Source: Escherichia phage vB_EcoM_E9.1
Length of the DNA stretch: 64,000 bases
Strand: one strand, 5' to 3'
Sequence record: PP886230
The translations under genes were made by a program, and so were the position numbers. Below the pieces are notes generated by a model that saw nothing but the letters and a program-made list of their open reading frames with translations, ran no database searches and was not told where the DNA came from. Shown here piece after piece: positions 1 to 39,727 of this stretch (its first letter is position 1; every line of letters begins with the position of its first letter).

Positions 1-154
1 CTCGCATCAGACCTTGTAGTGGTGTTTCGTTATGTTCAAGCTTTCCACCAACAAATGCCCAGTTGTTAGAATAGGTACTTCTTTCAGAACGCAAGTTTAA
101 CATCATATGTCCAGTACTTTTTGATAAAAATATAGCACCAACCGCTTCATTCAT
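1..154 (-). CDS. Nudix hydrolase, N-terminal fragment; gene continues beyond the window edge
   Basis: Minus-strand ATG at 154-152 with GGAGG SD 6 nt upstream. Hand translation MNEAVGAIFLSKSTGHMMLNLRSERSTYSNNWAFVGGKLEHNETPLQGLMR contains the start of a Nudix box (G-x5-E-x7-RE). Confidence 0.5.
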   Translation of the reverse strand, partial: MNEAVGAIFLSKSTGHMMLNLRSERSTYSNNWAFVGGKLEHNETPLQGLMR

Positions 155-167
155 AACAACACCTCCT

Positions 168-3001: not shown

Positions 3002-3043
3002 GATTGTCTCCAAAATAAATCGGGTATATCTTTATTTACCTTG

Positions 3044-3071
3044 TAGACAAACCGTAAGAATGTGATATAAT
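3044..3071 (+). promoter_or_regulatory. early sigma70-like promoter (TAGACA-N16-TGaTATAAT)
   Basis: TAGACA 3044-3049, 16-nt spacer, TGn-TATAAT 3063-3071; member of a recurring promoter family in this window. Confidence 0.5.
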
Positions 3072-3111
3072 GTTTATTAATTAGAGTGACGTGAATCACA
3101 TAGGAGAATAC

Positions 3112-5400: not shown

Positions 5401-5410
5401 AAAAAGAAAA

Positions 5411-5437
5411 GGAGAGCATATTGCTCTCCTTTTTTTA
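5411..5437. terminator. bidirectional intrinsic terminator between convergent genes
   Basis: GGAGAGC-atatt-GCTCTCC hairpin flanked by an A-run on the 5' side and a T-run on the 3' side. Confidence 0.7.
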
Positions 5438-8400
5438 TTACTTAACTAATAATATATTTTTAATATCATTACCACTAACTTGTAGACTATCAGTGTATAC
5501 TGAAAGATCTATAGTGTAACTATTTTGTGTGTAACGTTTTAACATATCATAATTACCTAAATTAATTCCATTGAAAGAATATGTAGTATTAAGTTTAAAA
5601 TCATGTTCTGCACTATACATTACACCACGGAGTAAATTATTTGCATTTCTAACTTCAACTTTTTCATATCCAATCGATATAATATCATTCATGTTTGCGG
5701 CTGAACCGGATAAAACATTATTTCTAATACTATAAGGACTTATTGATTTAGGTTGAGAAACATAGGTTGTATTTTCTTCACTAATGGTTGTGATGTTAGT
5801 AACAGTACCACCAACAACACCGATATACATACCGTCAACCATTGGGAATCCATAAACCCATATCCCTTCATTATTTCTAAACGGTTGAATAACACTTGAA
5901 TCATATTCGATAACGTTGATTTCTAAACTATCAGTCATTTTAGTTCTTGCCAATTCACTAAGAACTCCCGCACCCGTAATTGGTAAGTTATAACCGTTAT
6001 CGATAGTAATTCCATCAACATCAAATATTTCATTAGAGATTATCCAAACGTCAACGTCATCTGGTGTTATTCCGTCATTGTACTTACCACCATTTAAAGT
6101 AGTATCGTAGAAAACATCATAATTAATTACATCAATGGTGTAATTTCTATTTTGTTCATACAATTTAATACCATTCTTGACAAATTCAGGGTCAGCAAAT
6201 GTTCTAACACGAACAATGTTCAATGCTAGAGGCTGTACTGGCTCATTTTGTTGTGCAAGAGTGATGTTATCATAACGGAGAACTGCACCAGTACTCTCAT
6301 CAATCAATTCAATCGTTTCCTTACCTGTATTTCTTACAGTGAATAGGATCGGAGTTGTATTGTTTTTGATGTTAGATACACGCAAGATTGTTTCCCATGT
6401 GTGATTTTGATATCTCACAAAATCTTCACCATCAGGAGTGAAAATCATCACCTTATCACCATCAGATAGGTCATTGTCAACTATTTCTGCTTCAGTTAAG
6501 CTATTAATAGATCTCACACGATAGAAATATTTTTCATCAAACTTCGATGTTGTTTTATTAATATCATTTTCAATCTTAGCATATGAAGGAATACTTACAA
6601 TTGCTTCTGTATGTTTATATGGATTGATAATTGCCATACCTTCAGTTTGATATCTGCTGTTATCACGTAATTGTACAAGAGATACATTGTCAAACCCATA
6701 TCCATCAACTGTAAATCTAATTTGACCTACATCACGCCCAGAAGGGTTTATGTCAGATATATCCACAATATAAGGATCAACTTCATCATCTTTAACTTCC
6801 CATTTTATTGAAGAAGTTTGAGATTCCAATGCTAGGTTATCAAATGCATTCATATCATTGAAGTACTTAGCTTCAGTAATACTATCAAGTATATATTGAT
6901 AATCAGAATACATTGGATTATTTTGATCTAGTGGTAAATCATCAAGATTTATTTCAGCTAGTTCAACCATTTCACCATTTGTGATAAAATAATCTTCCAT
7001 GAAATCATCAATACTTTGTTCATCAGGTATACTTTGATATACACCGTTAACATTTAAGTAAACATATTTTCGTGGAATCATTGTAATTGCATAGATATCA
7101 ATTGGGGTCTTACTAAGAATCTCTTCAGCTTTTTCGTACTTATCAGTAGCGTCTTTGTCGAATAACCCTCTCATACCTGCTAATACGTGAATAGCATCAG
7201 TATAGAAACGGGTATCACCACCTACTTCATCATAACGATAAACATATACACCATACTCAACTTCAAGTTTAACTTTTACTTCATAGTCTGATGCGTCAGG
7301 ATTTTTATCTTTAATTAATGAAATGTATTTTTGATACAATTCACTGCTTATTTCAAAATATCCATAGTTATAATCATTACTAGAAGAAAAGCCTAATGGA
7401 AGTCTAGTACTAGGATTGTCATTATAAGTAAGTCCACTAAATCCACATCCAACTTCATCGTGAATTTTCTCATCACTTATATCTTTATAAAGTTTCAAAC
7501 GGTTTGCCAATGTGTTATACTGAACATATTGTCTAAGGTCAGTAAACATATCGTTATGCGTTGATTCTTTATAAACACGTTCCAATGTAGCAGTGAATTC
7601 ATCAGTTGCTTCTAAATCTTCCGCATGGTCTTTATACCACTGGTTAACGCCATATGCTGTTCCTAGTGTTACATCCAATTCTGGATAGTAGATTTGCATT
7701 TGATAAGCAATAAGAAGATCGAAAGTTTCTTCACTATATTCTGGGAAAGAATATATATAACGTTGTAATTCATAGTTACTAACAGCATCCTTTTCATTGG
7801 ATTGATATTTGTTATTAACACTTACTAATTCATTTATGCTTGCCAAATCTTCATTTGGTTTACACTGAATATTATCATAATGCATAATAATATCAATTTC
7901 TTGGAATCTTCTATTTGGTGTAACGAAATCACTTGGTAGTGAACCTACCTGTTCCCATTTTTGGGTAATTTCATTAAATTGAGCGTACTCATAATCCCAA
8001 ATATCTTTTTCAGTTTTGATCCAATAACCATCAACGAAAATATATCCATTAGGATCTAAATCATTACATAGACCTTTTATTAAATCATCATCAGATGTCT
8101 TTTGCTCTATTTGTGAACGAATTTTAGTTCTATAAGGTTTAACTTCTTCAAAATATTCAACAATTTGATTAATCAAATTATCGTTTGAATAGTTTTGAAC
8201 TAATGATTGTTCCAAACCAACAATATAGATATATGATGTTTTAAATACCCAATCCACAACACTTTGTTCAACATGTACATATTTGACCATATCAAAAACA
8301 ATTTCGCTTTGATGTAAATCGAAAGAATTTTTGAGTAAAGCTAGTGCTTTACGAACGTTGATTTCACGATTGCTTAGTGAACCATTATCATTATGAACAC

Positions 8401-11400
8401 TATAATCTGCGTAAAGCATATCATTGAGTTCAACTGTACTGTTTTCACGACCAATCGCTTTCCAATAAATTGAATCGCGTGATTGTGATTTAATATACAA
8501 TGTCCAAATGTTTTCACTATCGGTAACTCTGATAATATCGCCAACTTGGTAGTTTTTAGTATTAGCATCTTCTAAGCTTGACTCTTGAGTATAAGTCGTG
8601 TTACTATCATATCCAACATCATACCAATCAGCATATGACCAGTACTGAGTCATGTCTAATGAGGTTCCTAGTGATTCAACATAATCAGATTGTTTAATCA
8701 TTTTATGTTGTCCCTCACCTTTGTTTTCTAACGTTATAGTAACAACACTACCCGCGTTTGCTGGACTATTCATTAACTGAATATATCCATTTTCGTCGAA
8801 GTGAATAAAATAAACAGCACTAGAAGTTAATGGATTTGGTAGATATCCACTAGTACTTAAAATAACAGCGTCATTTTCTTTAAATTTATCACTTTCAACT
8901 GCAATAACTAATTCATTATTGTAAGACAACACACGGAAAGAAACTTCATTAGGGTTAACTTCAGTGGTTTTAACATTAAACACATCTTCCATAACAACAC
9001 TATTAGTGGTTATGTTTTGTGATCTATAATAATTATTAGCACTTTCTACAAAGTTTCTACGAGCTTCTATAACATTTTGGAACCAAGTTTTGTTTGATCC
9101 TAAACCGTTATCAACATCTGGATATAATAAATTAATCACAGAACCTGATTCAGTAGTTTCTTGTCCAATTAAAGAATTCCACATTGAATCCCAAATTAGA
9201 GGGTTAAAGTTATAACTATCACCTTCCTTGCATAGTTGGTACTGATCATGTTTAACAACTTCAGTATTATCCATGTAATAAGAAATTGTCAAAATACTAG
9301 TATCATCATTAACTTTAAACTGCATATTACTAAGAATAAACGAGTTTTCATTGATTGGTGCAAACCAAGGAATGTTTAACTGTGATGGATCTTTAATAAT
9401 ACGAGCAATATCAGTACATGATTTTGTTCTGGTATGTAGTGGTGGTACATAAATGGTATCACGTACCCAGAAGTAGTATTTTGTAACATAAGTATCAGTT
9501 GAGCTATCATATTCCAAAAATGTACTATAGTTATCTTCAAGAGCGGTTCCGCTTGGTAGATACATAGTATTATTTTTGTTTTTCTTAGCAACGTCTTTAC
9601 AATACTTATCCCAATTATATGGCTCTACTGGAGAACAAACCCATTCCAACACATCAATGGTACTATGTGGTAATAAACGACCCCAGTTATAACGTTTGTA
9701 TTCATTAGTTGCATCAATATCAACGTTTCCGTCTGCATCATAAATTGCACGTGTATAATCCAAATAAAATGCAGTACTTGTATTCCACCATACTTGACCA
9801 ACTTTATCAGCACCCCAAGCCTGAATTAATTCACCATTGCTATTATATTGTGCTGGGTCTATTGGTGACGTATAAGTTACGTTTTGCATTGCTGCACCAG
9901 GAATAACCCCATTGATAGGGTCATACACATTTAGATATAATGCAGTAATGTTAGTACGTTCATCATATGTAGTTGGACGGTCAAAAAAAGTACTTTGTGG
10001 TGCTTTGTAACTATACTTTTTGTCAATATATGCTTGACGCTCTTCTGCACTGGCAAAACGTGATACATAACGATACAAACGTGGACGTGTATCTGGATCA
10101 GTAAATTCAATATCAATAGAAGTGTCAAATGGAACTACCATAACTTTAGGATCAGAACCAGCAGTATAATATTGACTTTCTACTGTTAAAGTATCTGGCA
10201 TAAAGTTAGTTTCATCAACAAAATAATAATAATCACCATCTTCAAGTGGTACATTATCAGTTAAAGTTACTTTACAAAATTGTTCAGCATACACATCGGT
10301 ATTTTCAATAGGTGTTATAGAAACCATTTGTACATTAGTATCAACTAATTCAAAAATATTCCATAAACCATTTCCGTCTTTAAACATCCAAACAGATTCA
10401 GGGTTTTCACCTTTACCATTAGTGTAAGTTATACGGTCATTATATGCAGTACTGAAATCTTTTGTAGTGTAAGATACTTCATCCAATGTTACTGGACCAA
10501 TATCTGGAAGTTGAATGTTTTCACTTCTTCCACTACGCATCGGGAATGAGAACTTACCATTTGGACGTGTAATCCAACGAGGATCTTTACCTTGTTCGCC
10601 GAAGTATACAATATTGTTTCCATTTCCATTTGAAGTAGCGTTTACATCAAAAGATACCATTTGTGGTTGTTGTTTAAATTGGTCATTGATTAGTTTAAAT
10701 TGAAGGTTTTTCTTACCATCAATATTACCATATGTACCAATTTTAAATGCCCATTCTTGTAATGCTTTATATTCATCAGTGTCATATGATTTAGAAACAC
10801 GAAGTACACGTTCTAAAACTTGGTTAGTACCTTTATCGTGAATGAATCCTTTATAGAAATCAACACGACTAACATCACTACTAATCATACGCTGTAGATA
10901 ATCACGAGATTGATAACCAATCAAATGGTTTGACAACTCTTGTAATTGTACATCACTTACTGGAGTTTCACTATCATAATAATGTTGGAAATCCGACACT
11001 AATTTTTCAAATGATGGTAGTGTTCCAGCTTCCAAGATAATAAATCCAGGAGCTTGTAGGCGACCAGTCCATGAACCAGTAATATATCCATACATTTTAA
11101 TTAGTTCTTGAATAGAACCATATGTTGGCTGATAAATGTAATCACCAAAAATAGTTTTATCATCAAAAATAACAGCATGTTCATATGAACACAAACTTAA
11201 ACGAATCAATGCAATGCGTTTATTAGATTCTAAAGTTCTAACAGTGAAGATATTTCCAATACGAGAAGTTTCAATTTCATATTGGCGAATACCTTGGTTA
11301 TTATCATCAAGTAATGACCATACACCACCATTATTTTGCGTAATAGATTGTACTGAACCAAAGTCTGCCCCAAATTTAGCGTTTGCAGAACTTGGGGTAC

Positions 11401-14400
11401 AAGAAATAAATTCACCAGTTACTAGAGAATTCTGACTCCAGATCACGAAATCTTTAGCAATAGTGTTCCAATCTTGTTGAGCACCACTATCATTTACATC
11501 TTCAAAAATCCAACCATGTTCTTTAAGATATTCACCATATCCACAAATAAAAGTATAAACTTCTTGGTAACTATTGAAAACTTTACCATATTCAATTGAA
11601 GCTTCAGACTTCCATTCATTATAATGAACAACATTACGGTTTTCCAATTTAAGAGTTACTTTTCTACCATTTTTTACGGGAAGTTTATATTTAAATTTAG
11701 CACCAACTAGATCATATCCATCAATCTGATATGCACTACCATTCCAAGTAATTTTGATCGCACTCATTTGCTCATCACGGATATTATTAGAACGAACAAG
11801 ACCAATGGTTTGGTTTTCTTGTGAAATAAGACCGAAAGATTTAGCATTGAATGTTAGCTGATCTGCTTTAGTAAATCCTCCAATTTTATGACCAACATTT
11901 ATATAAGAAGAACGAACTACATCCCCATACTTGGTGGTAATATTTTTATTTTGATACATCAAATGGTCACTTACAAACATTTGATAACCAATGGTTCTTG
12001 TGCTATTTTCACCATGAACTACTGTATTTTTATCAAAATTAATACGCTTACGTGTATCACCATAAAGGAATTGTGAACCATCAGTGAATACTTCTTTTAA
12101 GTTATCATTGCGGGTATCCCAGAAATAGTTAGCAAATTGTGCTGGTTTAGCTTTATACAAAAGCATCATTTGGTCATATGCAAACAATGTAGTGTTCATG
12201 TATGTAAATTCCATGTCACCCATATCACCATATGTCCAAGGTTCTGCTCTATGATTTAAAGATCCAGACACTAAACCTAAAATTTCAGGTGCAATATATT
12301 CAACCACACAAATATCAATACCAGAAGATGTTTTATTTCCAGTTTTTGTAATTTTGAATGGCTGTACACCAAATCTTTTATATTTGTCATATTGACCACG
12401 ACGATCACCAAATAAAATAGTTCCAGTACTGCTATCTCCAATAGTTCCGTCAATATCCCAAAGACCACTAGGAACTAAATCACCTTGCTCATTCATAACA
12501 AGTGCTTCATATACATATACAACATCACTATCACGTTCACCAACTTGAACAGCCGTTGGTTCGTATTCTTGGTTCCACCAAGTTGGACGTTGTGTAAAGC
12601 CAAACATTTCCCACGGATGGGTAGCTGGGCGATATGTACCATATTGGTCAGTGTAAATGGCACGCCATGAACCACGTGCAGGAATTTCAGTACTTTGGCC
12701 ATTAACTACATAATAAGTGCCAGTATAGTTCCAAGTTCTCCAATTGTTAGGATCATAATCATGTGTACTATTACTGATACCATTAGTTGCGGTGAAGTTA
12801 ATGTATCCACGTAGTAATAATGTTTGTTTCTCTTCAGCACTATATTCAGTTTTAGTGAAATATGGTGTAGGGAAAAGGTCATCACTATTCAATACTGGTA
12901 CGTAATCAACATCTTTGAATTTATTATCAATACTATTAAAAATTCTATTTTCTAATTCATATACAACATCATCCATTTTATCAACACCATTGATAACACG
13001 GTATGCTTTGGAAATAATACCAGTATGACTGATGTTATAACAGCTTGGTTTACTACCAGCAGTGAGGAATGTCGCTTTTTCTGGTACATATGCTTGAAGA
13101 ATACCTAAGAACTGTGGTGTTGGTGGTATAAATGCACGAATGAATCCAGAAGTACTTCCAACATTATCATAATAGAATGGGAATGAACTATCACGTCCCA
13201 TATTAATAGTAGTTAAAATTGCATCAACAATGTTTGCAGCACTATTTTGTAAAAAGTCTGATGGATTTTCATCATACATACGAAGCATTTGTGTATTAAA
13301 TTTATTAATGAATCTAAAATATTCAGATTGCATAAACATAGTTGCTTCAAACAAATCAATATCTTCATTTGCAGTATGTGCCATCAATGGAAGCATAGAT
13401 GCTTCATTTTGGATAATTTTAGTACCTACGCCATTATTAACCAATCCTTTAGCCAAACGTTCTTCATAGTCATTGAAATCATCAGAAGAACCACGTGTAA
13501 TGTTCTTTTGAATAATATCCTGAAAATGTAAAGTGTAGTCACCTTGGTTAATGTATATAATATTAGAATTATATGGGTTATTTTGTAGGTTGATTGGAAC
13601 TTCATATGCACCTAATTCTTTATTAGGAGTTACAGTACTGCTATAAGTTCTGATTTGAATAACAGAATCTTCATCCAATTCTACAGTACTATCTAGAGTG
13701 ATGCTTTGTACTTGACCTTTTGAAACATTTTTGGTATATTTGGACACATCAACACCATCAACCACAACTTCAATAATATCAGAGTCATTATCTAAAACTT
13801 TTTGTGCCAATTCGAATGTATGGTCATATTTTACAATCTGAACACCATCACCAGTAATTGGATGCCAATCTAGATAAGTTTCTCGGTCAGCTTTATAGTA
13901 CTGATATGTTCTATCAACTTCAATAACATATGCATACATACCATCAACTGGTTCTTTAAAAACTTCCATATCATAAACAGTACTGAATACACGATACATA
14001 TCAGTACGTTGGACTTGTGGAGTTTGTTTTACAAATTGTTTAGAGTACTCTTCTGAACGAACCCAATCGGTTTGAAGATTCATTTCATTATTTTCATCAA
14101 TAATGTTATAATAGTATAAACCATCAATTTCAACTTCTTTTCCAAGATGGTCATAGGTATAACGTTGGGATTGTAAAAAGTTTTCATAAATGTAATAATT
14201 ATAATCACCAAGTTCAATGTTATATCCATATACACTATCAGTTGCATAGTTGTAATTTATTTTAAAACCAAACAACTCTGAACCTTTAAAGTTACTTGAT
14301 GGATATGTAGTACTGTTGTCAAGTTTGATACCATTACGATCATAAAGTTGGAATTTAGGGAATACGTTAACACTAGTTTTTGATTGTGCACGAACCCACA

Positions 14401-15409
14401 AAGATCCATTCCAGTACATAGAACTATTACCATACTCATTACCTTTAGTGATTAGAACAACATCACCATCTTGTGGTTCACCACTTGGGCGTGATTCGGT
14501 TTCTTCTTCTGGATCTAGTGCTAAACCATAAACACGAGTACCATCTTGCATTTTTTTCACATATACATTATAAATTCTATTGTTTTCACCATTGTTACCA
14601 ATACTGGTGAATAGAATACGCATTCCATCTTGCGGAATAATACCATCAATACGTATACCACTATTAATATCTTTTTGAACGATATCTTCAGGTTTAATAA
14701 TATCAGAGAACAGATCAACAGTTCCACGGAATTTTGTACCGTAGTTAATTAGCTCAATATTTTTATTATATTCAATAATTGGTGCACGTGCACGAATAAA
14801 ACGTGAATCTTGCATTAATTCTTCAGTTAATATTGAGCCATCTTCTAATGTTTCACCTAAAGTATACCAAAAGTTTTGTAGTGACCATGTATTACCATTA
14901 AGTGCTCCACGTTCCATTACAATGTAATCAGGTGAAGTAATATTATAAGAGTTTTTAGTATCCCAAAGATATGAGCTAAAATTGTTCATTTTATTTGGGT
15001 TAATAGCTGGAGTCCATGCATAAAACTTACCGTTGAACAAACGGCTTTCATTATCGGTTAGTGCTCCATAATGATTCATGTATCCAACTAGATCATCATA
15101 AAATTGAATTGAACGAATTGTCGAATCATCATTTTTTGAGACGTAAGCAGTGGACAACTGATAAAGTTGACGTGCTACAGTACTTTCATGTAAGAAGATA
15201 TTACCAGCAGCGGCAGGAGAACCCATATCACCAATATAGCCGTCAACTAATTCGTTTTCAGCCGGATTAAACCATTGTTGAATAACATCATCACTGACTT
15301 TTTGAATATCTTCTAAGCCTTGCATCCACTCAGGCAATCTTTTAATAAAAAGCTTCTTCTGTACTGCTTCAGCCATCTGTGTAGGTTGAAACTTAAAATT
15401 ATTAGTCAT
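5438..15409 (-). CDS. giant virion protein, about 3320 aa; possibly a baseplate/fibre protein in the gp7 position
   Basis: Uninterrupted 10-kb ORF directly downstream of the gp6-like gene. The second ATG (15409) has a GGAG SD; the first ATG (15439) does not. No catalytic motif recognised. Confidence 0.7.
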   Translation of the reverse strand: MTNNFKFQPTQMAEAVQKKLFIKRLPEWMQGLEDIQKVSDDVIQQWFNPAENELVDGYIGDMGSPAAAGNIFLHESTVARQLYQLSTAYVSKNDDSTIRSIQFYDDLVGYMNHYGALTDNESRLFNGKFYAWTPAINPNKMNNFSSYLWDTKNSYNITSPDYIVMERGALNGNTWSLQNFWYTLGETLEDGSILTEELMQDSRFIRARAPIIEYNKNIELINYGTKFRGTVDLFSDIIKPEDIVQKDINSGIRIDGIIPQDGMRILFTSIGNNGENNRIYNVYVKKMQDGTRVYGLALDPEEETESRPSGEPQDGDVVLITKGNEYGNSSMYWNGSLWVRAQSKTSVNVFPKFQLYDRNGIKLDNSTTYPSSNFKGSELFGFKINYNYATDSVYGYNIELGDYNYYIYENFLQSQRYTYDHLGKEVEIDGLYYYNIIDENNEMNLQTDWVRSEEYSKQFVKQTPQVQRTDMYRVFSTVYDMEVFKEPVDGMYAYVIEVDRTYQYYKADRETYLDWHPITGDGVQIVKYDHTFELAQKVLDNDSDIIEVVVDGVDVSKYTKNVSKGQVQSITLDSTVELDEDSVIQIRTYSSTVTPNKELGAYEVPINLQNNPYNSNIIYINQGDYTLHFQDIIQKNITRGSSDDFNDYEERLAKGLVNNGVGTKIIQNEASMLPLMAHTANEDIDLFEATMFMQSEYFRFINKFNTQMLRMYDENPSDFLQNSAANIVDAILTTINMGRDSSFPFYYDNVGSTSGFIRAFIPPTPQFLGILQAYVPEKATFLTAGSKPSCYNISHTGIISKAYRVINGVDKMDDVVYELENRIFNSIDNKFKDVDYVPVLNSDDLFPTPYFTKTEYSAEEKQTLLLRGYINFTATNGISNSTHDYDPNNWRTWNYTGTYYVVNGQSTEIPARGSWRAIYTDQYGTYRPATHPWEMFGFTQRPTWWNQEYEPTAVQVGERDSDVVYVYEALVMNEQGDLVPSGLWDIDGTIGDSSTGTILFGDRRGQYDKYKRFGVQPFKITKTGNKTSSGIDICVVEYIAPEILGLVSGSLNHRAEPWTYGDMGDMEFTYMNTTLFAYDQMMLLYKAKPAQFANYFWDTRNDNLKEVFTDGSQFLYGDTRKRINFDKNTVVHGENSTRTIGYQMFVSDHLMYQNKNITTKYGDVVRSSYINVGHKIGGFTKADQLTFNAKSFGLISQENQTIGLVRSNNIRDEQMSAIKITWNGSAYQIDGYDLVGAKFKYKLPVKNGRKVTLKLENRNVVHYNEWKSEASIEYGKVFNSYQEVYTFICGYGEYLKEHGWIFEDVNDSGAQQDWNTIAKDFVIWSQNSLVTGEFISCTPSSANAKFGADFGSVQSITQNNGGVWSLLDDNNQGIRQYEIETSRIGNIFTVRTLESNKRIALIRLSLCSYEHAVIFDDKTIFGDYIYQPTYGSIQELIKMYGYITGSWTGRLQAPGFIILEAGTLPSFEKLVSDFQHYYDSETPVSDVQLQELSNHLIGYQSRDYLQRMISSDVSRVDFYKGFIHDKGTNQVLERVLRVSKSYDTDEYKALQEWAFKIGTYGNIDGKKNLQFKLINDQFKQQPQMVSFDVNATSNGNGNNIVYFGEQGKDPRWITRPNGKFSFPMRSGRSENIQLPDIGPVTLDEVSYTTKDFSTAYNDRITYTNGKGENPESVWMFKDGNGLWNIFELVDTNVQMVSITPIENTDVYAEQFCKVTLTDNVPLEDGDYYYFVDETNFMPDTLTVESQYYTAGSDPKVMVVPFDTSIDIEFTDPDTRPRLYRYVSRFASAEERQAYIDKKYSYKAPQSTFFDRPTTYDERTNITALYLNVYDPINGVIPGAAMQNVTYTSPIDPAQYNSNGELIQAWGADKVGQVWWNTSTAFYLDYTRAIYDADGNVDIDATNEYKRYNWGRLLPHSTIDVLEWVCSPVEPYNWDKYCKDVAKKNKNNTMYLPSGTALEDNYSTFLEYDSSTDTYVTKYYFWVRDTIYVPPLHTRTKSCTDIARIIKDPSQLNIPWFAPINENSFILSNMQFKVNDDTSILTISYYMDNTEVVKHDQYQLCKEGDSYNFNPLIWDSMWNSLIGQETTESGSVINLLYPDVDNGLGSNKTWFQNVIEARRNFVESANNYYRSQNITTNSVVMEDVFNVKTTEVNPNEVSFRVLSYNNELVIAVESDKFKENDAVILSTSGYLPNPLTSSAVYFIHFDENGYIQLMNSPANAGSVVTITLENKGEGQHKMIKQSDYVESLGTSLDMTQYWSYADWYDVGYDSNTTYTQESSLEDANTKNYQVGDIIRVTDSENIWTLYIKSQSRDSIYWKAIGRENSTVELNDMLYADYSVHNDNGSLSNREINVRKALALLKNSFDLHQSEIVFDMVKYVHVEQSVVDWVFKTSYIYIVGLEQSLVQNYSNDNLINQIVEYFEEVKPYRTKIRSQIEQKTSDDDLIKGLCNDLDPNGYIFVDGYWIKTEKDIWDYEYAQFNEITQKWEQVGSLPSDFVTPNRRFQEIDIIMHYDNIQCKPNEDLASINELVSVNNKYQSNEKDAVSNYELQRYIYSFPEYSEETFDLLIAYQMQIYYPELDVTLGTAYGVNQWYKDHAEDLEATDEFTATLERVYKESTHNDMFTDLRQYVQYNTLANRLKLYKDISDEKIHDEVGCGFSGLTYNDNPSTRLPLGFSSSNDYNYGYFEISSELYQKYISLIKDKNPDASDYEVKVKLEVEYGVYVYRYDEVGGDTRFYTDAIHVLAGMRGLFDKDATDKYEKAEEILSKTPIDIYAITMIPRKYVYLNVNGVYQSIPDEQSIDDFMEDYFITNGEMVELAEINLDDLPLDQNNPMYSDYQYILDSITEAKYFNDMNAFDNLALESQTSSIKWEVKDDEVDPYIVDISDINPSGRDVGQIRFTVDGYGFDNVSLVQLRDNSRYQTEGMAIINPYKHTEAIVSIPSYAKIENDINKTTSKFDEKYFYRVRSINSLTEAEIVDNDLSDGDKVMIFTPDGEDFVRYQNHTWETILRVSNIKNNTTPILFTVRNTGKETIELIDESTGAVLRYDNITLAQQNEPVQPLALNIVRVRTFADPEFVKNGIKLYEQNRNYTIDVINYDVFYDTTLNGGKYNDGITPDDVDVWIISNEIFDVDGITIDNGYNLPITGAGVLSELARTKMTDSLEINVIEYDSSVIQPFRNNEGIWVYGFPMVDGMYIGVVGGTVTNITTISEENTTYVSQPKSISPYSIRNNVLSGSAANMNDIISIGYEKVEVRNANNLLRGVMYSAEHDFKLNTTYSFNGINLGNYDMLKRYTQNSYTIDLSVYTDSLQVSGNDIKNILLVK

Positions 15410-15455
15410 TTTTGGACTCCATATAATTCGTTCATTCATTTGATTTATTTATGAT

Positions 15456-15483
15456 ATAAAAAAGGCGTTCCGAAGAACGCCCG
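15456..15483 (-). terminator. intrinsic terminator with UUCG tetraloop
   Basis: On the minus strand GGCGTTC-uucg-GAACGCC followed by a U-run; downstream of the 1153-aa gene. Confidence 0.6.
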
Positions 15484-15488
15484 TTATA

Positions 15489-18400
15489 TTAAGAACCGAT
15501 ATTAATATTACTTTTAGCTAGTGAGTTAACAATTTGAACATTTTCAACAGATGCAGTACTCAAAAATATTTGGTCTGAACGTGAAGGGATTTCAAATAGA
15601 GAGCCAAATTTTGAATTTGGATTTTGTGCAACTATAACAATGGTACTAATATGTCTACCTAACTGTGAGTGTATGTAAGTACACAAATCAGTATAATAGA
15701 AACTTTCACCGAAATCCCAGTTATCAACATTGAAGTATTCATTAGTTAATGCTATAACATTTTGACGAATTTCATCGTCACTCATTGTGCTGTTTGGTAA
15801 TTTCACTACTTTAAAATCAGCTTTGTAATCTTCAGCAGCACTGTTGCCAAATAAAGGTAAGTACTCAGCACTATGCCAAATAATACTATCACTAATGACT
15901 ATTTTTTGTTCAACATCTTTGAACATATCTTTCAATTCAACCGATGTAGGTGGTTTAGGAATACTACCAACAGCATTATTTTTCAACCAAACGTCAACTT
16001 CAGTTTTATATGAATTGGTTAATACATACATATCAATTAAGTTTGTTCTACTAGGATCAATGCGATTGTCGTCAGGTGCATAGTGTTTCCAATGGAAGTC
16101 TATACTAGTACGTGCATTAGTTTTAACAGTGTACTGTGAAGTAACATCTTTGTATCCATAATAATCTAGCTTCTGATTCTCGTCAGCATTAGTTCCCATG
16201 TTATTAATTGCACGATAAAAAGCCAATTCAGGACTAACAGTGCCAGTATCATCGGAATAAGTTAAATTACTAATTAGCTGTCCTAAACGATCATTGTTGT
16301 TACCAACTGTTTGTTCAATAAAATAATATTTACCATCATAGTTAAAACCAACTAAAAATCCAGAACCTTTACTATATAATCCACTCAATGTGGTTGAACG
16401 AATTGCGTTATTTCTAACAAATTCAGTTCTTTTATATGCATTCGGCTCTGCCAAGGCTTGTTCCATTGTATAAGACCACGATGAATCAAGAAGTGTGAAG
16501 GTATCATTTGGTAACGACAGTACTGATATAGTGAAATCACTATTTTCCTGAAATACCAAAATACCACCATATTTTAATGCATCGGTTCCAGTCCAAGTAG
16601 GAACAATTTCTTTAAATTGGTTTGGTTCCAATGGTATACCATTACTATCTACTTTCCTAGATGTAACAATAACACGAGAACCATCTAGATAGCCATTCTC
16701 TTGTTGAATTGTGTCATAAATTTGAAAATCTATATTACTTGTCAATCCTGAATTACTACTACTAGTAGTGTTAGATGATAAAATTTCAATCTTATCACTT
16801 TGAACTGTACCAGTACTAATATCAGTAATTTTTTTAGATGATACAAAGTAAAATCTTACTTTTTCTCCACCCACAAAAATATATTCAATACCGTTAGCAT
16901 CAAATTCCCAAGTTTCTGCTGTATATTTTACATTAATTATAATTAAAACTTCATTACCATTATATACAATAGTATCATCATTGGTACTTACTTCAATAGG
17001 AACCCATGATGTCGTTTCTTTGTCATGTACAATAACAAAATCAGTTTTTTTATCTAGCATAGCAGAAATTGCTTGAACTTCAACCGAGTTAAATCTAGTT
17101 CTATATGGTAAAATGTACTCTATGGCTTGCATTCCACTTGGAACCGATGTACTCAGTACATAAAATCCATTATCCAATACACTAACTACACTAGCCCATA
17201 TAGTAGTTCCAGAATTAGAAAATTTAATTAGAGTACCAACCTGATATGAACCATAAACTGTACCAGATGAACCCAAAATTCTACCATATGTGTTAGTTGT
17301 ATAATTTGAATTGTATACCGGAGTCCATGCTTGTTGTATTTCAATACCAATTGTATTTGAAGGAAACGCTTGGTAACGTTGTATTACCGCATTTTCACCA
17401 ATCAATGGTTGAATATTGTCAATAACAATACTAGCATTTGTTTTTGTGGTTGGTAGCAATAATGACCTATTAAATTGTGTGTTTTCTTGATATAACGCAC
17501 CATCATCACTAAAAACATCGGTATTTTGATACTTACCAGTAGGATCATTAATATCAATAAATCTTGATTGTCCACTATAAATTCTATTAATAGCTTTAGA
17601 TTTAAGTACAGTATTGCCTAAACTAAGTGGTGCAATATTATAATCTTCACCATTGACAAAACGGTTTTGTGTATAGTACATTTGTGGTGCACGTGCTTTA
17701 ATCTGCTCAATAGTCTCTGCACTTTGTGCACGGTCGGACTCATATTGTAATGAAAAACGTATATCCAATGTACTAGATTCATAACTTGACTGTGTTTTTG
17801 TACGATATGTATATTTTACGCTTTTGTTTTGAATTTCAGAAGTTTTAATGTTATATGTTTTACCATTACTAACACGATACCATACGCGGAACGTCCCACG
17901 GGGAACAACACCACTTCTTGAGTCTGGATACTTAATTGTTATTTGATCTTTATCACGAGTAGTAACAGCAAAAATTGTTTTTAATTGACGATTAACAGTG
18001 TTATATGCAATACTTTCCATTGATGGAACTTTTGTCCATTTGGTACGAACAATACCATCTTCATTTATTTCTTGAACCCATACATCAGTTTCGTTGATAT
18101 TATCAACGTTAATATCTTGTATACGGTTCTCTTCACGGATAGCATATTGATAATCTTGATATGTCAATGTACCTTGTACGAAATATACAAAAAAACCAGT
18201 ATTTGGTGAGCTAAATCCATTACCATCATTTTGATAAACAATATATTTTTGCTCTTGTGGTTCTGGATGTCGTTCTTCAACACCAACAGACGTAATATCA
18301 GGATTCACTACTTCAAATGTCATAGATTCACCATTGACAGTTGCAATAAATGGAATACTGGGTGCTGTCATTGGGATGGTGTTCATTCGATATAGTTGAC

Positions 18401-18950
18401 GGGAGACACCATTAACATCAATACGCTTGACTGGATTACCAAATTGGTTAGTACTGACAAATGAACTGTTCATTACTAGAATGAAGTTTTCATACCAGTT
18501 AGCATCCATCGGGTCATTCCAACGAATGATTTTATCTTTTAATGATTCATTAAAACTATTACGAACATCTTGGTTTGTTTTAATTTCGGTTAATTTAGCA
18601 ACTGCACGACCTGGATATGAGCGGCGTGGTGAGTAAGAAATCATTTTAGCTAGTTTTAGTACTGATGCACGACGAGTTGCAGTATCTAAAAAGTTTTCAC
18701 GTGTGTTCAAATCCATACGAAATGCCAAGTTCTGCCCTAGCATAGAAATCGTATCTAAAATAAAAATAAACTGGTCGTTTTCGATCCAGTCGTTGAATGA
18801 GTCTGGGTAAGTTGCACGTAGATAATCAATCATACTCTGACGGATAGTATCGAAGTCATAAGCTGTAAGATTGATTTTATAAAAACTTTCATATACTTGA
18901 GTCCAATCCTCACCAGCGTATAAATTTGATTGCCTTTTTTGTTGTGACAT
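15489..18950 (-). CDS. baseplate wedge protein, gp6 / Baseplate_J-like, 1153 aa
   Basis: Assigned mainly by position (immediately after the gp25-like gene, the usual gp25-gp6 order in contractile tails) and size; no motif verified. Confidence 0.45.
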   Translation of the reverse strand: MSQQKRQSNLYAGEDWTQVYESFYKINLTAYDFDTIRQSMIDYLRATYPDSFNDWIENDQFIFILDTISMLGQNLAFRMDLNTRENFLDTATRRASVLKLAKMISYSPRRSYPGRAVAKLTEIKTNQDVRNSFNESLKDKIIRWNDPMDANWYENFILVMNSSFVSTNQFGNPVKRIDVNGVSRQLYRMNTIPMTAPSIPFIATVNGESMTFEVVNPDITSVGVEERHPEPQEQKYIVYQNDGNGFSSPNTGFFVYFVQGTLTYQDYQYAIREENRIQDINVDNINETDVWVQEINEDGIVRTKWTKVPSMESIAYNTVNRQLKTIFAVTTRDKDQITIKYPDSRSGVVPRGTFRVWYRVSNGKTYNIKTSEIQNKSVKYTYRTKTQSSYESSTLDIRFSLQYESDRAQSAETIEQIKARAPQMYYTQNRFVNGEDYNIAPLSLGNTVLKSKAINRIYSGQSRFIDINDPTGKYQNTDVFSDDGALYQENTQFNRSLLLPTTKTNASIVIDNIQPLIGENAVIQRYQAFPSNTIGIEIQQAWTPVYNSNYTTNTYGRILGSSGTVYGSYQVGTLIKFSNSGTTIWASVVSVLDNGFYVLSTSVPSGMQAIEYILPYRTRFNSVEVQAISAMLDKKTDFVIVHDKETTSWVPIEVSTNDDTIVYNGNEVLIIINVKYTAETWEFDANGIEYIFVGGEKVRFYFVSSKKITDISTGTVQSDKIEILSSNTTSSSNSGLTSNIDFQIYDTIQQENGYLDGSRVIVTSRKVDSNGIPLEPNQFKEIVPTWTGTDALKYGGILVFQENSDFTISVLSLPNDTFTLLDSSWSYTMEQALAEPNAYKRTEFVRNNAIRSTTLSGLYSKGSGFLVGFNYDGKYYFIEQTVGNNNDRLGQLISNLTYSDDTGTVSPELAFYRAINNMGTNADENQKLDYYGYKDVTSQYTVKTNARTSIDFHWKHYAPDDNRIDPSRTNLIDMYVLTNSYKTEVDVWLKNNAVGSIPKPPTSVELKDMFKDVEQKIVISDSIIWHSAEYLPLFGNSAAEDYKADFKVVKLPNSTMSDDEIRQNVIALTNEYFNVDNWDFGESFYYTDLCTYIHSQLGRHISTIVIVAQNPNSKFGSLFEIPSRSDQIFLSTASVENVQIVNSLAKSNINIGS

Positions 18951-19015
18951 AATTTATTCCTTTAAATCAGTAAAGTACTAGTTCAGTACTGGGAATTATA
19001 TATAGAAATATTTAT

Positions 19016-19046
19016 TCAAAAAGAAAAGCACTCCGAAGAGTGCTTT
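19016..19046 (-). terminator. intrinsic terminator with UUCG tetraloop
   Basis: On the minus strand AAGCACTC-uucg-GAGTGCTT followed by a U-rich run. Confidence 0.6.
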
Positions 19047-19051
19047 TGTAA

Positions 19052-19462: not shown

Positions 19463-19951
19463 TTATACGGATTCAACAATACGTGCCATCTTTTCCGCTC
19501 TTGAAGTGGTTTGTTTATACCATGTACTATCACGCAATTCCTTACCAGCAGTTTTATAATCAGCCTTACCTAATGCGGTCATTGCTTTTTTAAATTTTAA
19601 AACTTTGGTTTTGCCCATCTGGAATACCATCAACCATAATACACGTTGAACCTGTACAGGTGCGGTCATACCAAATTGTTCATAAATTGATTTTGCATCA
19701 TTGTACGCAGTTTGAGCATCTTTAAGAAGAAGTTGGTCAGCTTGTGCTTCTGTTAAACCATTCTTGAAATTTTCACCAGGTAAAACTAGGTGACCATAGC
19801 CAATAGTATCAAGACCTAAGCTGTCTTTATATACCCAAAACTTATCATTTTTAAAATAACCAAGTTTTTTCTGATAAGCAATAGTTCCTTCAAATTCTTT
19901 AATTTCCTTAAAAAATTGCTCATCTGTATTTTTAATTTCCCATTTACTCAT
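19463..19951 (-). CDS. T4-type lysozyme (endolysin-like), 162 aa
   Basis: EFEGT...DTIGYGH catalytic region (Glu/Asp/Thr equivalents present), MVFQMG and WY.QT..RA motifs as in T4 lysozyme. Confidence 0.85.
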   Translation of the reverse strand: MSKWEIKNTDEQFFKEIKEFEGTIAYQKKLGYFKNDKFWVYKDSLGLDTIGYGHLVLPGENFKNGLTEAQADQLLLKDAQTAYNDAKSIYEQFGMTAPVQVQRVLWLMVFQMGKTKVLKFKKAMTALGKADYKTAGKELRDSTWYKQTTSRAEKMARIVESV

Positions 19952-19987
19952 AAAGATATCCTCGTTTTATTTATAGTACTAAAATAT

Positions 19988-22651
19988 TTATTGACATGCC
20001 TCTAAACGACGAGCCATTAACTCAGCACGGCGAGTAGTTTGGCGATACCAAGCTGAATTACGTATTTGAGCAGCAGCTTGTTTATAATTACCTTTAGCTA
20101 ATTCAGACAACATAGTTTTAAATTTAAGTACCCCACCTTTACCCATCTGGAATACCATTTGGCATAGTACTTGTTGAGCCAAATAAGGTGTTTTCATGTT
20201 GTATGAAGCATAAATTGATTTAGCATCATATATAGCTTTACTACTATCACGAACTAACATATCGTTGGCTTGCTGTTCAGTTATTCCATCTGAAAAGTTT
20301 TCACCACTAATAATTAAGTGACCATAACCAATAGTTGGATACCCACGACTATCCAAATAACGCCAGAATTTACCATTACGATAATATCCTTTTGCTTGTT
20401 GGTATTGTAATGTACCTTCATATTCTTTTAATTCAGAAATAAATTGTGCATCACCTGGAACAACTTTCCAATCGATTGCAGTTTTATCAACATTTCCAAT
20501 ATTATAGGTAGGTTGCTCCACCGGAGTTGTTGAAGCTCCACTTCTCTGTGTTCTTCTCCTACGAGGCACATGACGAGAACCACGTTGAGAATATCCAGTA
20601 CCTATCGTTTTGATTTTTGTTGTAACTACCAATTCATCACTATCAACTGAAGGTTGTACAACTGCTTTTGGAGCAGATTGATTAGTTGCTTGACCACCAA
20701 TTAATGTTTTATTCGCCGCATCAGACCCTGTTCCTGTTTGTGAAGCATAAAATAATCCTGGGTCAACAGAACCACTGAATCCAAGAACATTTGCTGATGT
20801 AACACGAATTTCAAACTGTATGACACCATTTGCTTTTCCAACAACTTGACCTTTTTGAACAACATCTTTGTTTAATAAATCAGATTGAATATTATAAAAA
20901 ATAGATTTATATCCAGACTTATGTTGTATTAAAAGAGCACCATTAGTAATTACTACCACACCACCATCTGGTGCAACTACATCACCTTTACATTGTATTT
21001 CCCAACCTGAACGGTCTGCCTTTCCTCCACTTTGTGTTGGAACACCTTTCCCCCAGTAACCATATTGTCGAATAGTGCCGCTACATGGCATTAACATATG
21101 TAAACCTTCATATGTAATACTATATCCAGTCATCCCAGGATCAGATGTCATCAAATCTTGTGATTGAACTTGTTCAGTTTCTGATGTATAGTTAACAAAC
21201 TGAACAGCTTCAGTGTCTTGTGCTACGGGTAATTCTGGTGATACATCATTTGCTGGTTGTGGTTGTACTGGTGATTCACTAGAACCACTTCCACCACCTT
21301 GTCTTGGTGGTTCAACATAACTACCATGATTTTCAGCGTTAACCCATGCAGCAATATCATGAATGTGTTCATTAAGACCAGCAGATGGTGTTCTAAAGTT
21401 TGGTGCAGTAAATTCAGCAGTACCGCTATTACCACCACTATTAACTGTTAATGTTTGACCACCACCACTAATAATTGCTGATGATGATCCAATTAGGTTT
21501 GCAGATGTTGCGGCAGAAATAGAAGCATTTGAACCAGCCGTAATATCAGTACTGCTACCACTTTGCATACGTAATGATGCAGCAGTAACTAAACGAAGGT
21601 CTGCCCCAGAATTAACAACAACTTGTCCACCAACTTTTGCATCAAGAGCACCAATTAGATCTAATTTAGTATTTGCACCAACTCGTGCATTGAAATCTTG
21701 TCCGGTTTCAATATTATATGAACGTCCAGCAGTAATATTAATATCTTGACCAGCACGAATATTAATATTCTTATCACAGTGCATGTCAATATCACCTTCA
21801 CCAGTGAATTTTATACGTGCAGTGCCATCACGGTTAATTAAAAGAACATCACCAGTAGCTTCTGATAAAAGAAGTTGTGCACCACTACGTGTTTTTATTA
21901 CGACACCTTCATTTTTACGAGAACCAACACGTGTATCGTTTACTGGGTTATTAAATTGTGTATCTTGATATCCATCTGGGTCTTGATCCCACGTTGGTGC
22001 TGTTAATTCCTCTTCAGTATATCCATCATCAATAATAAAACTATTACCACGTGGCGAAGACATACCATATACAGTACTGGTGGTTTGTCGAGTACTACTA
22101 CGATTCGCCAACCCAGCTTCTTCGTCATATAAAAGGTTTTGCTTTTTAAGACCTGCGATAATTGGAACGTTAGCATATTTGTCTTGCATATCGGTAGTGA
22201 TAGTGTTACGATCATAGTCAGTAACAGGAAGTGGCATATCAGTTCCACCATAATTACTTACTTCAGTTGCCATACCTGGAACCATAGTATTCATACGCTG
22301 GTCATATACACAACCAATCCAATATGCTTGGAATGTACGGGCTTGTGCAAAAATTACAACAACTGTACACCCTACGTCTGGTGGTACTGCCCAAAAACCG
22401 TATCCTTTTGGATATTGACCATATGCATCAGCACTTGGAATACCTGGTGTTTTACCAGCAAAAGGAGACATGTAAGATGCTTCTATCCATGATTCTTTTG
22501 AGTTTTTATCACTTTGAGAACCTTGTATCCAAACTTTCAGTTTTCCTGATTTAGTTGGATCTCTGTTATCCATAACAGTTGCTAACTGCGGATAAGATGG
22601 GTCAAAACGACCCAACTGCTGTTGTGCATACTTTTTACTTGTATCTGCCAT
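19988..22651 (-). CDS. 5: gp5-like baseplate central spike with C-terminal T4-lysozyme domain, 887 aa
   Basis: N-terminal OB-like region, central Gly/Ser/Thr/Asn-rich repeats suggestive of a beta-helix, a lysostaphin-like stretch lacking the HxH motif, and a C-terminal domain about 55-60% identical by eye to the adjacent standalone lysozyme. Confidence 0.7.
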   Translation of the reverse strand: MADTSKKYAQQQLGRFDPSYPQLATVMDNRDPTKSGKLKVWIQGSQSDKNSKESWIEASYMSPFAGKTPGIPSADAYGQYPKGYGFWAVPPDVGCTVVVIFAQARTFQAYWIGCVYDQRMNTMVPGMATEVSNYGGTDMPLPVTDYDRNTITTDMQDKYANVPIIAGLKKQNLLYDEEAGLANRSSTRQTTSTVYGMSSPRGNSFIIDDGYTEEELTAPTWDQDPDGYQDTQFNNPVNDTRVGSRKNEGVVIKTRSGAQLLLSEATGDVLLINRDGTARIKFTGEGDIDMHCDKNINIRAGQDINITAGRSYNIETGQDFNARVGANTKLDLIGALDAKVGGQVVVNSGADLRLVTAASLRMQSGSSTDITAGSNASISAATSANLIGSSSAIISGGGQTLTVNSGGNSGTAEFTAPNFRTPSAGLNEHIHDIAAWVNAENHGSYVEPPRQGGGSGSSESPVQPQPANDVSPELPVAQDTEAVQFVNYTSETEQVQSQDLMTSDPGMTGYSITYEGLHMLMPCSGTIRQYGYWGKGVPTQSGGKADRSGWEIQCKGDVVAPDGGVVVITNGALLIQHKSGYKSIFYNIQSDLLNKDVVQKGQVVGKANGVIQFEIRVTSANVLGFSGSVDPGLFYASQTGTGSDAANKTLIGGQATNQSAPKAVVQPSVDSDELVVTTKIKTIGTGYSQRGSRHVPRRRRTQRSGASTTPVEQPTYNIGNVDKTAIDWKVVPGDAQFISELKEYEGTLQYQQAKGYYRNGKFWRYLDSRGYPTIGYGHLIISGENFSDGITEQQANDMLVRDSSKAIYDAKSIYASYNMKTPYLAQQVLCQMVFQMGKGGVLKFKTMLSELAKGNYKQAAAQIRNSAWYRQTTRRAELMARRLEACQ

Positions 22652-30626: not shown

Positions 30627-30718
30627 AATTCCTCACCAAACTATTTGTTATCAAAATATTTATAGATTAGTTATTTGCAATATTTTAAGTACTTAATGAA
30701 TATTTTTATAAAAATAGT

Positions 30719-32508: not shown

Positions 32509-32599
32509 TTTATTAAATCTCCATGTAATAAATGTGTTTTAGTATTTATAAGACTAAAAAAGATTAAATTAAACTAATTTTTATATTCTCTATAGTTTC

Positions 32600-38489: not shown

Positions 38490-38555
38490 CATTTTAAAAA
38501 TATAAATATCTGTATGTTGAAGTACAGATATTTCAGTACTTAAAGGAGAGAACGA

Positions 38556-39709: not shown

Positions 39710-39727
39710 TATAAATAATATCATACT
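39710..39727 (+). promoter_or_regulatory. late promoter (TATAAATAATATCATACT)
   Basis: Exact T4-type TATAAATA at 39710-39717, about 45 nt upstream of the capsid gene ATG. Confidence 0.55.

Follow-up and report, generated by a model that had tools for sequence, protein, structure and literature searches.

Gene 582 of phage 121Q, its counterpart in PBECO4, gp245 of phAPEC6 and JP4_316 of JP4 are among the closest described relatives of the gene studied here, which lies on the minus strand of a 64,000-nucleotide (nt) stretch of Escherichia phage vB_EcoM_E9.1 (sequence record PP886230; the whole stretch is referred to as the window). All four encode proteins of the same length, 3323 amino acid (aa) residues, with 98.1–99.9% DNA identity across 100% of the gene, and the neighbours of 121Q gene 582 match those in the window. 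The protein or a homologue is known from the virions of four phages. Mass spectrometry (MS) detected gp245 in phAPEC6 (381.88 kDa, 17 unique peptides; PMC7247149), JP4_316 in JP4 (3323 aa, 381.6 kDa predicted, 11 peptides; PMC12648861) and CBB_236 in CBB (21 peptides; PMC5259590), and the record of the 3857-aa homologue in PA5oct carries an electrospray ionisation tandem MS flag. The literature on RaK2, CBB, phAPEC6, PA5oct, phiKp24, the Alcyoneusvirus adsorption complex, JP4, Sharanji and fEgEco12 offers no structural or functional assignment.

The giant gene of vB_EcoM_E9.1 is real and intact, the protein or a homologue of it is present in the virions of four phages, and both the family and the gene order are conserved. 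With moderate confidence, we propose that the protein is a single-chain peripheral baseplate scaffold which links the inner wedge to the fibres.

Identity and integrity of the giant gene

The 10-kb gene is 99.9% identical at the DNA level to that of Escherichia phages JP4 and vB_Eco_slurp01, 98.1–98.9% identical to that of PBECO4, 121Q, phAPEC6, G17, Sharanji and others, and 82–89% identical in further coliphages, with lower values in Klebsiella, Erwinia, Cronobacter, Serratia and Salmonella jumbo phages. Matches to the gene were found in 57 phage records, 34 of which span at least 80% of the query. These identities place the source phage in Asteriusvirus (the genus given in the 121Q record), a Rak2-like jumbo coliphage, and identify the giant gene with 121Q gene 582, phAPEC6 gp245 and JP4_316, annotated as ‘virion structural protein’; across records the orthologue is labelled either in this way or as ‘hypothetical protein’. 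The gene is not new: dozens of GenBank records annotate it, and it has its own PHROG. This is PHROG 10938 (‘virion structural protein’), matched with E=0 and 5785 bits by residues 11–3330 of the open reading frame (ORF) over positions 1–3324 of the 3324-position profile. In the CBB paper the ‘largest ORF’ is the zero point for aligning Rak2-like genomes (PMC5259590). Problem annotations occur among GenBank OQ411014.1, OR699181–OR699183, MH494197.1 and NC_027399.1 (EJP2, Salmonella phages, CMSTMSU and K64-1); phage EJP2 names the orthologue ‘D-alanyl-D-alanine carboxypeptidase’, a label for which support was not found.

The start of the giant gene has the following features:

5438..15409, minus strand: reading frame for the giant virion protein, 3323 aa and a stop codon; computed mass 382 kDa and pI 4.6
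15410..15439, minus strand: ten in-frame codons 5′ of the likely start (MNERIIWSPK), probably untranslated
15417..15420, minus strand: GGAG ribosome-binding site read from the sequence, 7 nt upstream of the ATG at 15409

One open frame occupies positions 5438–15439 of the minus strand, with 3333 codons counted from its first ATG (at 15439) in the ORF listing, and its translation contains no internal stops. The second in-frame ATG (M11) is at 15409, which is where an earlier reading of the DNA, made from the letters alone (the sequence-only reading), had ended the gene. The most likely product is the 3323-aa protein starting at this ATG, because GGAG lies 7 nt upstream of it, the annotated orthologues of 121Q (9972 nt, 3323 aa) and JP4 (JP4_316; 3323 aa, starting MTNNFKFQ) begin at M11, and the PHROG 10938 alignment also opens at frame residue 11; the Shine-Dalgarno sequence for ATG 15409 sits within the ten upstream codons. 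The sequence-only reading gave both 3333 codons and about 3320 aa for its single 10-kb ORF, and both figures are right, the former for the maximal frame and the latter for the likely product. The window has a G+C content of 33%, at which about 7.5% of random codons are stops, and by our own arithmetic the chance of an open run of 3333 codons is about 1e-112; a chance origin of the frame is excluded. Antisense ORFs inside the frame are negligible, as had been supposed: only one reaches at least 80 aa (13289–13531, 80 aa, TTG start).

At least 34 independent phage genome records contain the frame without interruption, hundreds of metagenome contigs have it intact, down to 24% identity, and amino acid conservation spans the full length of the protein. 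The sequence-only reading had allowed for an artificial fusion caused by sequencing errors, or for several smaller products. An assembly artefact, or a protein made or processed in pieces, could be read into the Salmonella phages SD-1_S14, SD-2_S15 and SD-6_S16 and into CMSTMSU, where the gene is broken into three or four coding sequences, and into the RefSeq record of K64-1, which holds only a 1373-aa fragment. These split versions are, however, minority exceptions and look like errors of those assemblies. The giant gene is not an assembly artefact, because the frame is conserved end to end and four virion proteomes (JP4, phAPEC6, CBB and PA5oct) contain peptides matched to the full-length entry. 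In addition, sodium dodecyl sulphate-polyacrylamide gel electrophoresis of JP4 gave bands reported up to 385 kDa (PMC12648861), and none of the results suggests an internal start or frameshift site. We therefore give this explanation, in either form, almost no credence.

A family of giant proteins

A search with the full protein returned 199 homologues, with lengths of 2779–5638 aa among the 120 listed. Residues 1–1150, used as a HMMER query, matched 994 representative clusters (50% identity) at E≤1e-3 and 571 at E≤1e-30; the 143 newly returned sequences among the top 150 matches have a median length of 3513 aa, 107 of them are at least 3000 aa long and the longest has 7307 aa. Nearly all family lengths fall between 2,000 and 7,300 aa. 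Shorter members (559–1973 aa) were checked as possible natural splits, and the one looked up lies on a 7-kb contig with an overlapping downstream ORF and resembles a fragment or the result of a frameshift; the short sequences as a group look like contig fragments, and naturally split genes were rejected as an explanation.

The core of the protein is found in 92 cultured-phage records, beyond the Rak2-like group in PA5oct-like Pseudomonas phages, Agrobacterium phage Atu_ph07 and Sinorhizobium phage Phosso, with weaker matches in Ralstonia phage RsoM2USA, Xanthomonas phage Xoo-sp13 and Stenotrophomonas phage RAS14. As judged from these searches, the family consists of giant proteins spread through jumbo phages of Proteobacteria, beyond the Rak2-like myoviruses. 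Because relatives across about 1000 clusters are nearly all very large, the comparison indicates that the giant size is ancestral to the family and is not a recent join.

Organisation of the giant protein

The alignment of relatives divides the protein as follows, all on the minus strand:

14936..15409, minus strand: residues 1–158, N-terminal module that nearly all members of the family possess; candidate for anchoring to the inner wedge
11609..14935, minus strand: residues 159–1267, conserved beta-rich multidomain body with helical inserts
8060..11608, minus strand: residues 1268–2450, second half of the conserved core, holding an insertion hot spot at about 1768–1785
10766..11194, minus strand: residues 1406–1548, strongly conserved and partly helical; candidate protein-protein interface
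5441..8059, minus strand: residues 2451–3323, faster-evolving, lineage-specific C-terminal region with an acidic first half

The core common to the most distant relatives comprises residues 1 to about 2450, and the last ~870 aa are lineage-specific; identity declines past about residue 2500, and the C-terminal region (2451–3323) has no match in distant homologues. Within residues 1406–1548 of the core, E1410, H1411, D1416, F1518, Y1519, G1521, K1526 and G1527 vary little or not at all. In relatives, insertions are found after residues 158, 755 and 1267, the first of these being a hot spot whose preceding region is kept in distant homologues, and the largest insertions, of up to about 1000 aa, are at 1768–1785. 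In the two relatives scanned (P0097 and P0093) the insert at about residue 1778 contains FG-GAP repeats. The C-terminal variable part of P0093, the one distant relative scanned for it, contains a CBM_5_12 module, and precomputed Pfam annotation places Laminin_G_3 in distant homologues as well. At these two variable sites, one near residue 1778 and one in the C-terminal third, relatives carry adhesion or carbohydrate-binding modules, so both are probably exposed on the side facing the host.

The C-terminal 873 aa were found by tblastn in 72 phage records, once per genome and never outside the giant gene. They are 99.8–99.9% identical among Asteriusvirus isolated on E. coli K-12, O157 and ATCC 25922 and on Salmonella, and 40–48% identical in other Rak2-like genera, a divergence in step with the rest of the protein. 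(A homologue search with this region alone gave nothing at E≤0.001, which reflects a limitation of the tool and is not counted as a result.) The pattern indicates that the region is inherited vertically and is not a swapped receptor-binding module. Because it is nearly identical across hosts and its divergence tracks phylogeny, the giant protein does not appear to be the host-range determinant.

Scans of the whole protein and of seven segments against Pfam, NCBIfam and PHROG at lenient thresholds matched only its own PHROG; the other matches were at chance level (PAS_9, E 0.038; TPR_17, E 0.076). Catalytic and metal-binding motifs (HExxH, GxMEN, CxxC, HxH and similar) were absent by regular-expression search, so the impression of the sequence-only reading that the frame has no enzymatic motif is borne out. 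Weak Foldseek matches, including one to LTA4 hydrolase, had raised the idea of an M1 aminopeptidase-like enzyme. This was dropped because there are no such motifs and the only three conserved histidines (795, 1411 and 2054) are scattered.

Predicted structure

AlphaFold2 models cover residues 1–1150 and 1251–2450. The first model, built from a 21-sequence alignment, has a mean predicted local distance difference test score (pLDDT) of 81.5 and a predicted template modelling score (pTM) of 0.74, which indicates that residues 1–1150 are a compact multidomain body. The second has a mean pLDDT of 70 and a pTM of 0.43, with pLDDT values of 80–90 over residues ~1630–2390. The modelled domains are a mixture of small beta-sandwich, beta-barrel and helical folds.

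In the first model pLDDT is below 50 at residues 1–19 and 42–77, although residues 1–77 (15179–15409) are conserved, and in the second the conserved residues 1406–1548 are unplaced in the monomer, with pLDDT below 50 at model residues 156–297. Two of the best-conserved stretches of the family (1406–1548 and 1–77) are thus exactly those with pLDDT below 50 in the monomer. Such a combination in the models is typical of segments that fold only against a partner.

Comparison of the two models with solved structures gave no significant relatives and no prominent enzyme folds, the search having used whole multidomain models. The top weak matches are to N-terminal domains of tail-spikes and tail fibres and to Ig-like pilin or adhesin domains. 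Among them is the N-terminal region of CBA120 TSP4 (PDB 7rfv, residues 1–250), a sub-significance match covering less than 10% of the model. TSP4, a trimeric tailspike, has an enzymatic beta-helix; nothing comparable was found in the giant protein. Sequence searches of the PDB with the protein and with a 19-sequence profile gave no matches even at E≤10.

Gene order around the giant gene

The genes upstream of the giant gene, and the regions that hold the ~200-aa protein and fibre genes in the compared loci (L001, the 121Q locus, and L003, L004 and L007), are:

22665–24914, minus strand: conserved virion protein, 749 aa, PHROG 11190, directly upstream of the hub gene
19988..22651, minus strand: gp5-like hub and tail lysozyme gene, 887 aa (Pfam Phage_base_V, DUF2345 and Phage_lysozyme; PHROG 13211)
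19463..19951, minus strand: small lysozyme gene, 162 aa
19052..19447, minus strand: gp25-like sheath-initiator gene, 131 aa (Pfam GPW_gp25, E=1.2e-8; PHROG 43)
15489..18950, minus strand: gp6-like baseplate wedge gene, 1153 aa (PHROG 10646 at full length; PHROG 219, residues 26–125 against profile 4–102, E=1.2e-20; PHROG label ‘baseplate wedge subunit’)
L003 20760–24057: ~200-aa protein and fibre region
L004 22696–27633: ~200-aa protein and fibre region
L007 17351–19705: ~200-aa protein and fibre region
L001 4502–6223: ~200-aa protein and fibre region

The order of transcription in the window is hub-lysozyme, small lysozyme, gp25-like, gp6-like, giant. The sequence-only reading, which saw a very large structural gene in the baseplate block, following gp25-like and gp6-like genes and at the position of T4 gene 7, described this correctly. 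The order hub, gp25-like, gp6-like, giant is shared by the window, 121Q, PA5oct and three distant metagenomic loci (24–28% identity). In all contexts examined the gp6-like gene adjoins the giant gene; it is of the PHROG 10646/DUF8360 type in the three metagenomic loci, in two of which it abuts or overlaps the giant gene. The gp6-like protein is the probable direct partner of the giant protein.

On the other side of the giant gene, four relatives at a greater distance than Asteriusvirus carry a gene for a protein of ~200 aa and then two or three tail-fibre genes. In the two distant metagenomic loci tested, L003 and L004, the ~200-aa protein belongs to PHROG 11259 and the fibre genes are of the collar type, their products having in common an N-terminal motif of ~60–100 aa (PHROG 15511/14394-like). 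This motif has the look of a shared docking adaptor. In PA5oct, as judged by size and annotation, a ~200-aa MS-detected protein is followed by one annotated as tail fibre/T4 gp10-like. The 121Q orthologues of the ~200-aa and fibre genes (576 and 577) are ~6 kb further on, inverted and just outside the window, with a ClpA-like gene, a structural gene, a gp15-like gene and a NUDIX gene lying between them and the giant gene. Sheath initiator, wedge 1, wedge 2 and fibre is the canonical contractile-tail order, as in Pam3 gp21–gp24, where the outer wedge chain bears the fibre docking sites (PMC9942802).

Proposed role of the giant protein and alternatives

From gene order, virion presence and architecture we infer the location of the protein in the baseplate periphery, its copy number, its mode of docking and its role as a platform. 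The giant protein would be a peripheral subunit of each baseplate wedge, probably in six copies per virion. A conserved region would dock onto the inner wedge of two gp6-like chains and gp25, the candidates being the N-terminal ~150 residues and residues 1406–1548, both conserved and unplaced as a monomer. The conserved body of 2450 residues would form the outer baseplate and be the platform on which the ~200-aa adaptor protein and tail fibres are mounted. One chain would in this way do the work of T4 gp7 and several outer-baseplate proteins without detectable homology to them; such a replacement of several proteins by one is plausible from the gene order. Six copies amount to 2.3 MDa, which by a rough volume estimate fits the CBB baseplate, measured at 36 × 15 nm (PMC5259590).

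Several points weigh against this role. The map of phAPEC6, which is the only tail reconstruction of a close relative, reaches ~25 Å and has no density assigned to the giant protein (PMC7247149). The models cover only residues 1–1150 and 1251–2450, all structural matches fall below the usual levels of significance, and the homology tests (gp7 Pfam domains, hhalign and PDB) were negative. Wedge synteny is not universal, since phiKZ gp87 and gp128 have non-neighbouring gene numbers. Finally, the 749-aa PHROG 11190 protein is the main alternative candidate for the third wedge chain. An 816-aa protein of the same PHROG immediately precedes the hub gene in L003, and proteins of 874 and 698 aa lie near that position in L004 and L005.

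The sequence-only reading had suggested a giant fibre as one possibility. On this explanation the protein would be a trimeric or elongated receptor-binding protein or adhesin projecting from the baseplate, like the short baseplate fibres of CBB and fEgEco12; CBB has 28.6-nm baseplate fibres with terminal knobs for which the gene is not assigned (PMC5259590). The character of the best weak structural matches (tail-spike or fibre N-terminal and Ig-like pilin or adhesin domains) and the FG-GAP, CBM_5_12 and, by precomputed Pfam annotation, Laminin_G_3 modules of distant homologues speak for it. We nevertheless consider it unlikely, as no tail-spike or fibre-type domain was found in the searches, and self-BLAST and self-hhalign, run for the internal repeats that the sequence-only reading had thought worth looking for, detected none. 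The first 1150 residues are modelled as a compact monomeric body and the 2350 modelled residues as globular, the C-terminus is non-mosaic, near-identical across hosts and confined to the giant gene, and relatives have separate collar-type fibre genes downstream. The other suggestion, a fusion of several baseplate functions, survives in the functional sense that one chain may share the scaffolding of several proteins, but not as a homologous fusion of gp7–gp12. A genuine T4 gp7 homologue that has diverged to an extreme degree, or a gp7 joined to outer-baseplate genes, would overlap with a peripheral scaffold in function, and the position immediately after the gp6-like gene, as for T4 gene 7, would suit it. 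The likeness of the gp6 of this clade to that of T4 is marginal (CBB against T4, E=0.098; PMC5259590), so any gp7 signal might have faded beyond detection. The three Pfam gp7 domains Gp7_helical (PF21428; residues 643–689), Gp7_5th (PF21427) and Gp7_6th (PF21456), however, hit T4 gp7 at E 5e-30 to 2e-47 and yielded nothing for the giant protein even at E≤5, neither with the complete sequence nor with seven segments of it. Likewise, hhalign of the family profile against T4 gp5, gp6, gp7, gp8, gp9, gp10, gp11, gp12, gp53 and wac gave nothing, and a 29-sequence family alignment matched a 21-sequence gp7 alignment with a best probability of 0.1% (E 0.44), the gp7 alignment being shallow (at least 46% identity), which limits sensitivity. 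With no gp8–gp12 signal, no PDB sequence match to the family profile and an apparently ancestral size, neither membership of the gp7 family nor a gp7–gp12 fusion is established by these comparisons, and we regard such descent as quite improbable.

Other phages have very large virion proteins that serve as ejected enzymes, the N4 virion RNA polymerase being one, and this precedent could suggest an internal, ejected protein or a ruler akin to a tape measure. Neither is at all likely here. Polymerase, nuclease, peptidase or other catalytic motifs and domains were not found by Pfam, NCBIfam and regular-expression searches, and the synteny is with wedge and fibre genes. The modelled parts are predicted to be mostly beta-rich globular domains and not a long helix, and the gene is placed after the wedge genes, not before the hub. 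The 749-aa protein would be a better fit to a ~110-nm tail ruler: at 1.5 Å per residue it would span ~112 nm, against a reported tail length of 109–123 nm, and because of this agreement it may be the tape measure.

If the giant protein is a peripheral scaffold, a wider proposal can be made more tentatively, and we would not rely on it: that Rak2-like, PA5oct-like and Atu_ph07-like phages, with about a thousand metagenomic lineages, build the outer baseplate from six chains of 0.3–0.8 MDa whose domains have no solved relatives, with two ‘plug-in’ sites (near residue 1778 and in the C-terminal third) for host-adhesion modules. Because this large family lies between conserved inner-baseplate genes and fibre genes, a structure would reveal how the triggering of the sheath is connected to the recognition of the host in a widespread group of jumbo phages, and several domains new to the known range of baseplate folds would come with it. 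For phage engineers, the two variable sites would be obvious points at which to graft binding modules. The annotation of the window is left unchanged by these findings; the gene is ordinary for its phage group and the family is large.

Flanking signals and neighbouring genes

Signals on either side of the giant gene are:

15463..15482, minus strand: terminator-like hairpin and T-run between the gp6-like and giant genes; 8-bp stem with 5 GC pairs, then TTTTTATATC
15446..15453, minus strand: CATAAATA, putative late promoter, a 7/8 match to the T4-type TATAAATA, 36 nt upstream of the start codon
5407..5433, minus strand: terminator-like hairpin directly 3′ of the giant stop, with a 12-bp stem and T-run, common to the convergent ClpA-like gene

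Hairpins of the type at 15463..15482 were found twice by consensus scan against 0.2 expected, and of the type at 5407..5433 once against 0.1 expected, which is consistent with a function in termination. That CATAAATA serves as the late promoter of the giant gene is conjectured from its likeness to the T4-type motif. Exact TATAAATA motifs occur at 19968–19975, 30657–30664, 32543–32550, 38501–38508, 39710–39717 and elsewhere, ~15–55 nt upstream of several gene starts, and overall the motif is not enriched in the window (8 found, 10 expected). A gp55-like late sigma factor is encoded at 26103–26942.

The gene that converges on the giant gene (3091–5400, plus strand) encodes a ClpA/ClpB-type double AAA+ ATPase of 769 aa (AAA_2, E=2e-49; ClpB_D2-small; Clp_N); it is 38 nt from the end of the giant gene and the two have the hairpin terminator in common. 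The Clp-like gene is present in 121Q (gene 581) and absent at the corresponding place in L003, L004, L005 and PA5oct. It would be pure speculation that the ATPase aids the folding or assembly of the 382-kDa protein.

The 162-aa lysozyme is a paralogue of the C-terminal lysozyme domain of the hub protein (53% identity over 158 aa, E=3e-57), and its gene looks like a tandem copy of that domain, set apart as a gene of its own. In 121Q, gene 584 (L001 25518–26282), an HNH endonuclease gene that its record associates with a group I intron, lies between the gp25-like and gp6-like genes. The window differs in that this element appears to be absent at 18951–19051, because the gap between the two genes is only ~100 nt. 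Separate gp8 or gp9 homologues were not recognised among the neighbouring genes examined. The 749-aa protein has no Pfam or PDB match, and PDB sequence searches with it and with the gp6-like protein, as a means of identifying wedge candidates, were uninformative.

Comparison with known baseplates

A counterpart outside the Rak2-like group is the virion structural protein PQE65_gp355 of PA5oct (3857 aa), with its homologues in Atu_ph07, Phosso and further jumbo phages. Their core is homologous to that of the giant protein, with 26–28% identity across residues 756–1600, and the string of genes in PA5oct is the same (hub, gp25-like, gp6-like, giant, ~200-aa protein and fibre), with all products MS-flagged. 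The PA5oct-type homologues differ in having unrelated C-terminal regions and extra insertions.

The giant protein resembles T4 gp7 (1032 aa) in that its gene is located directly after the gp6 gene inside the hub/wedge block, and in being a low-abundance virion protein with a large multidomain architecture. It differs in being three times longer; only ~400 residues of T4 gp7 are in the conserved wedge core (Pfam domains at 643–1012).

The baseplate of phiKZ shows no significant sequence or fold relationship to the giant protein and is similar in kind, being a jumbo-phage baseplate with a large, fibre-bearing peripheral platform. Its wedge consists of two gp87 and gp128, and its outer scaffold of gp27, gp139, gp26, gp130 and gp157. 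Whereas the phiKZ platform is thus assembled from many copies of at least five mid-sized proteins, the candidate here is a single 382-kDa chain, which, if the proposed role is true, would be an architectural alternative to the many-protein periphery of both T4 and phiKZ.

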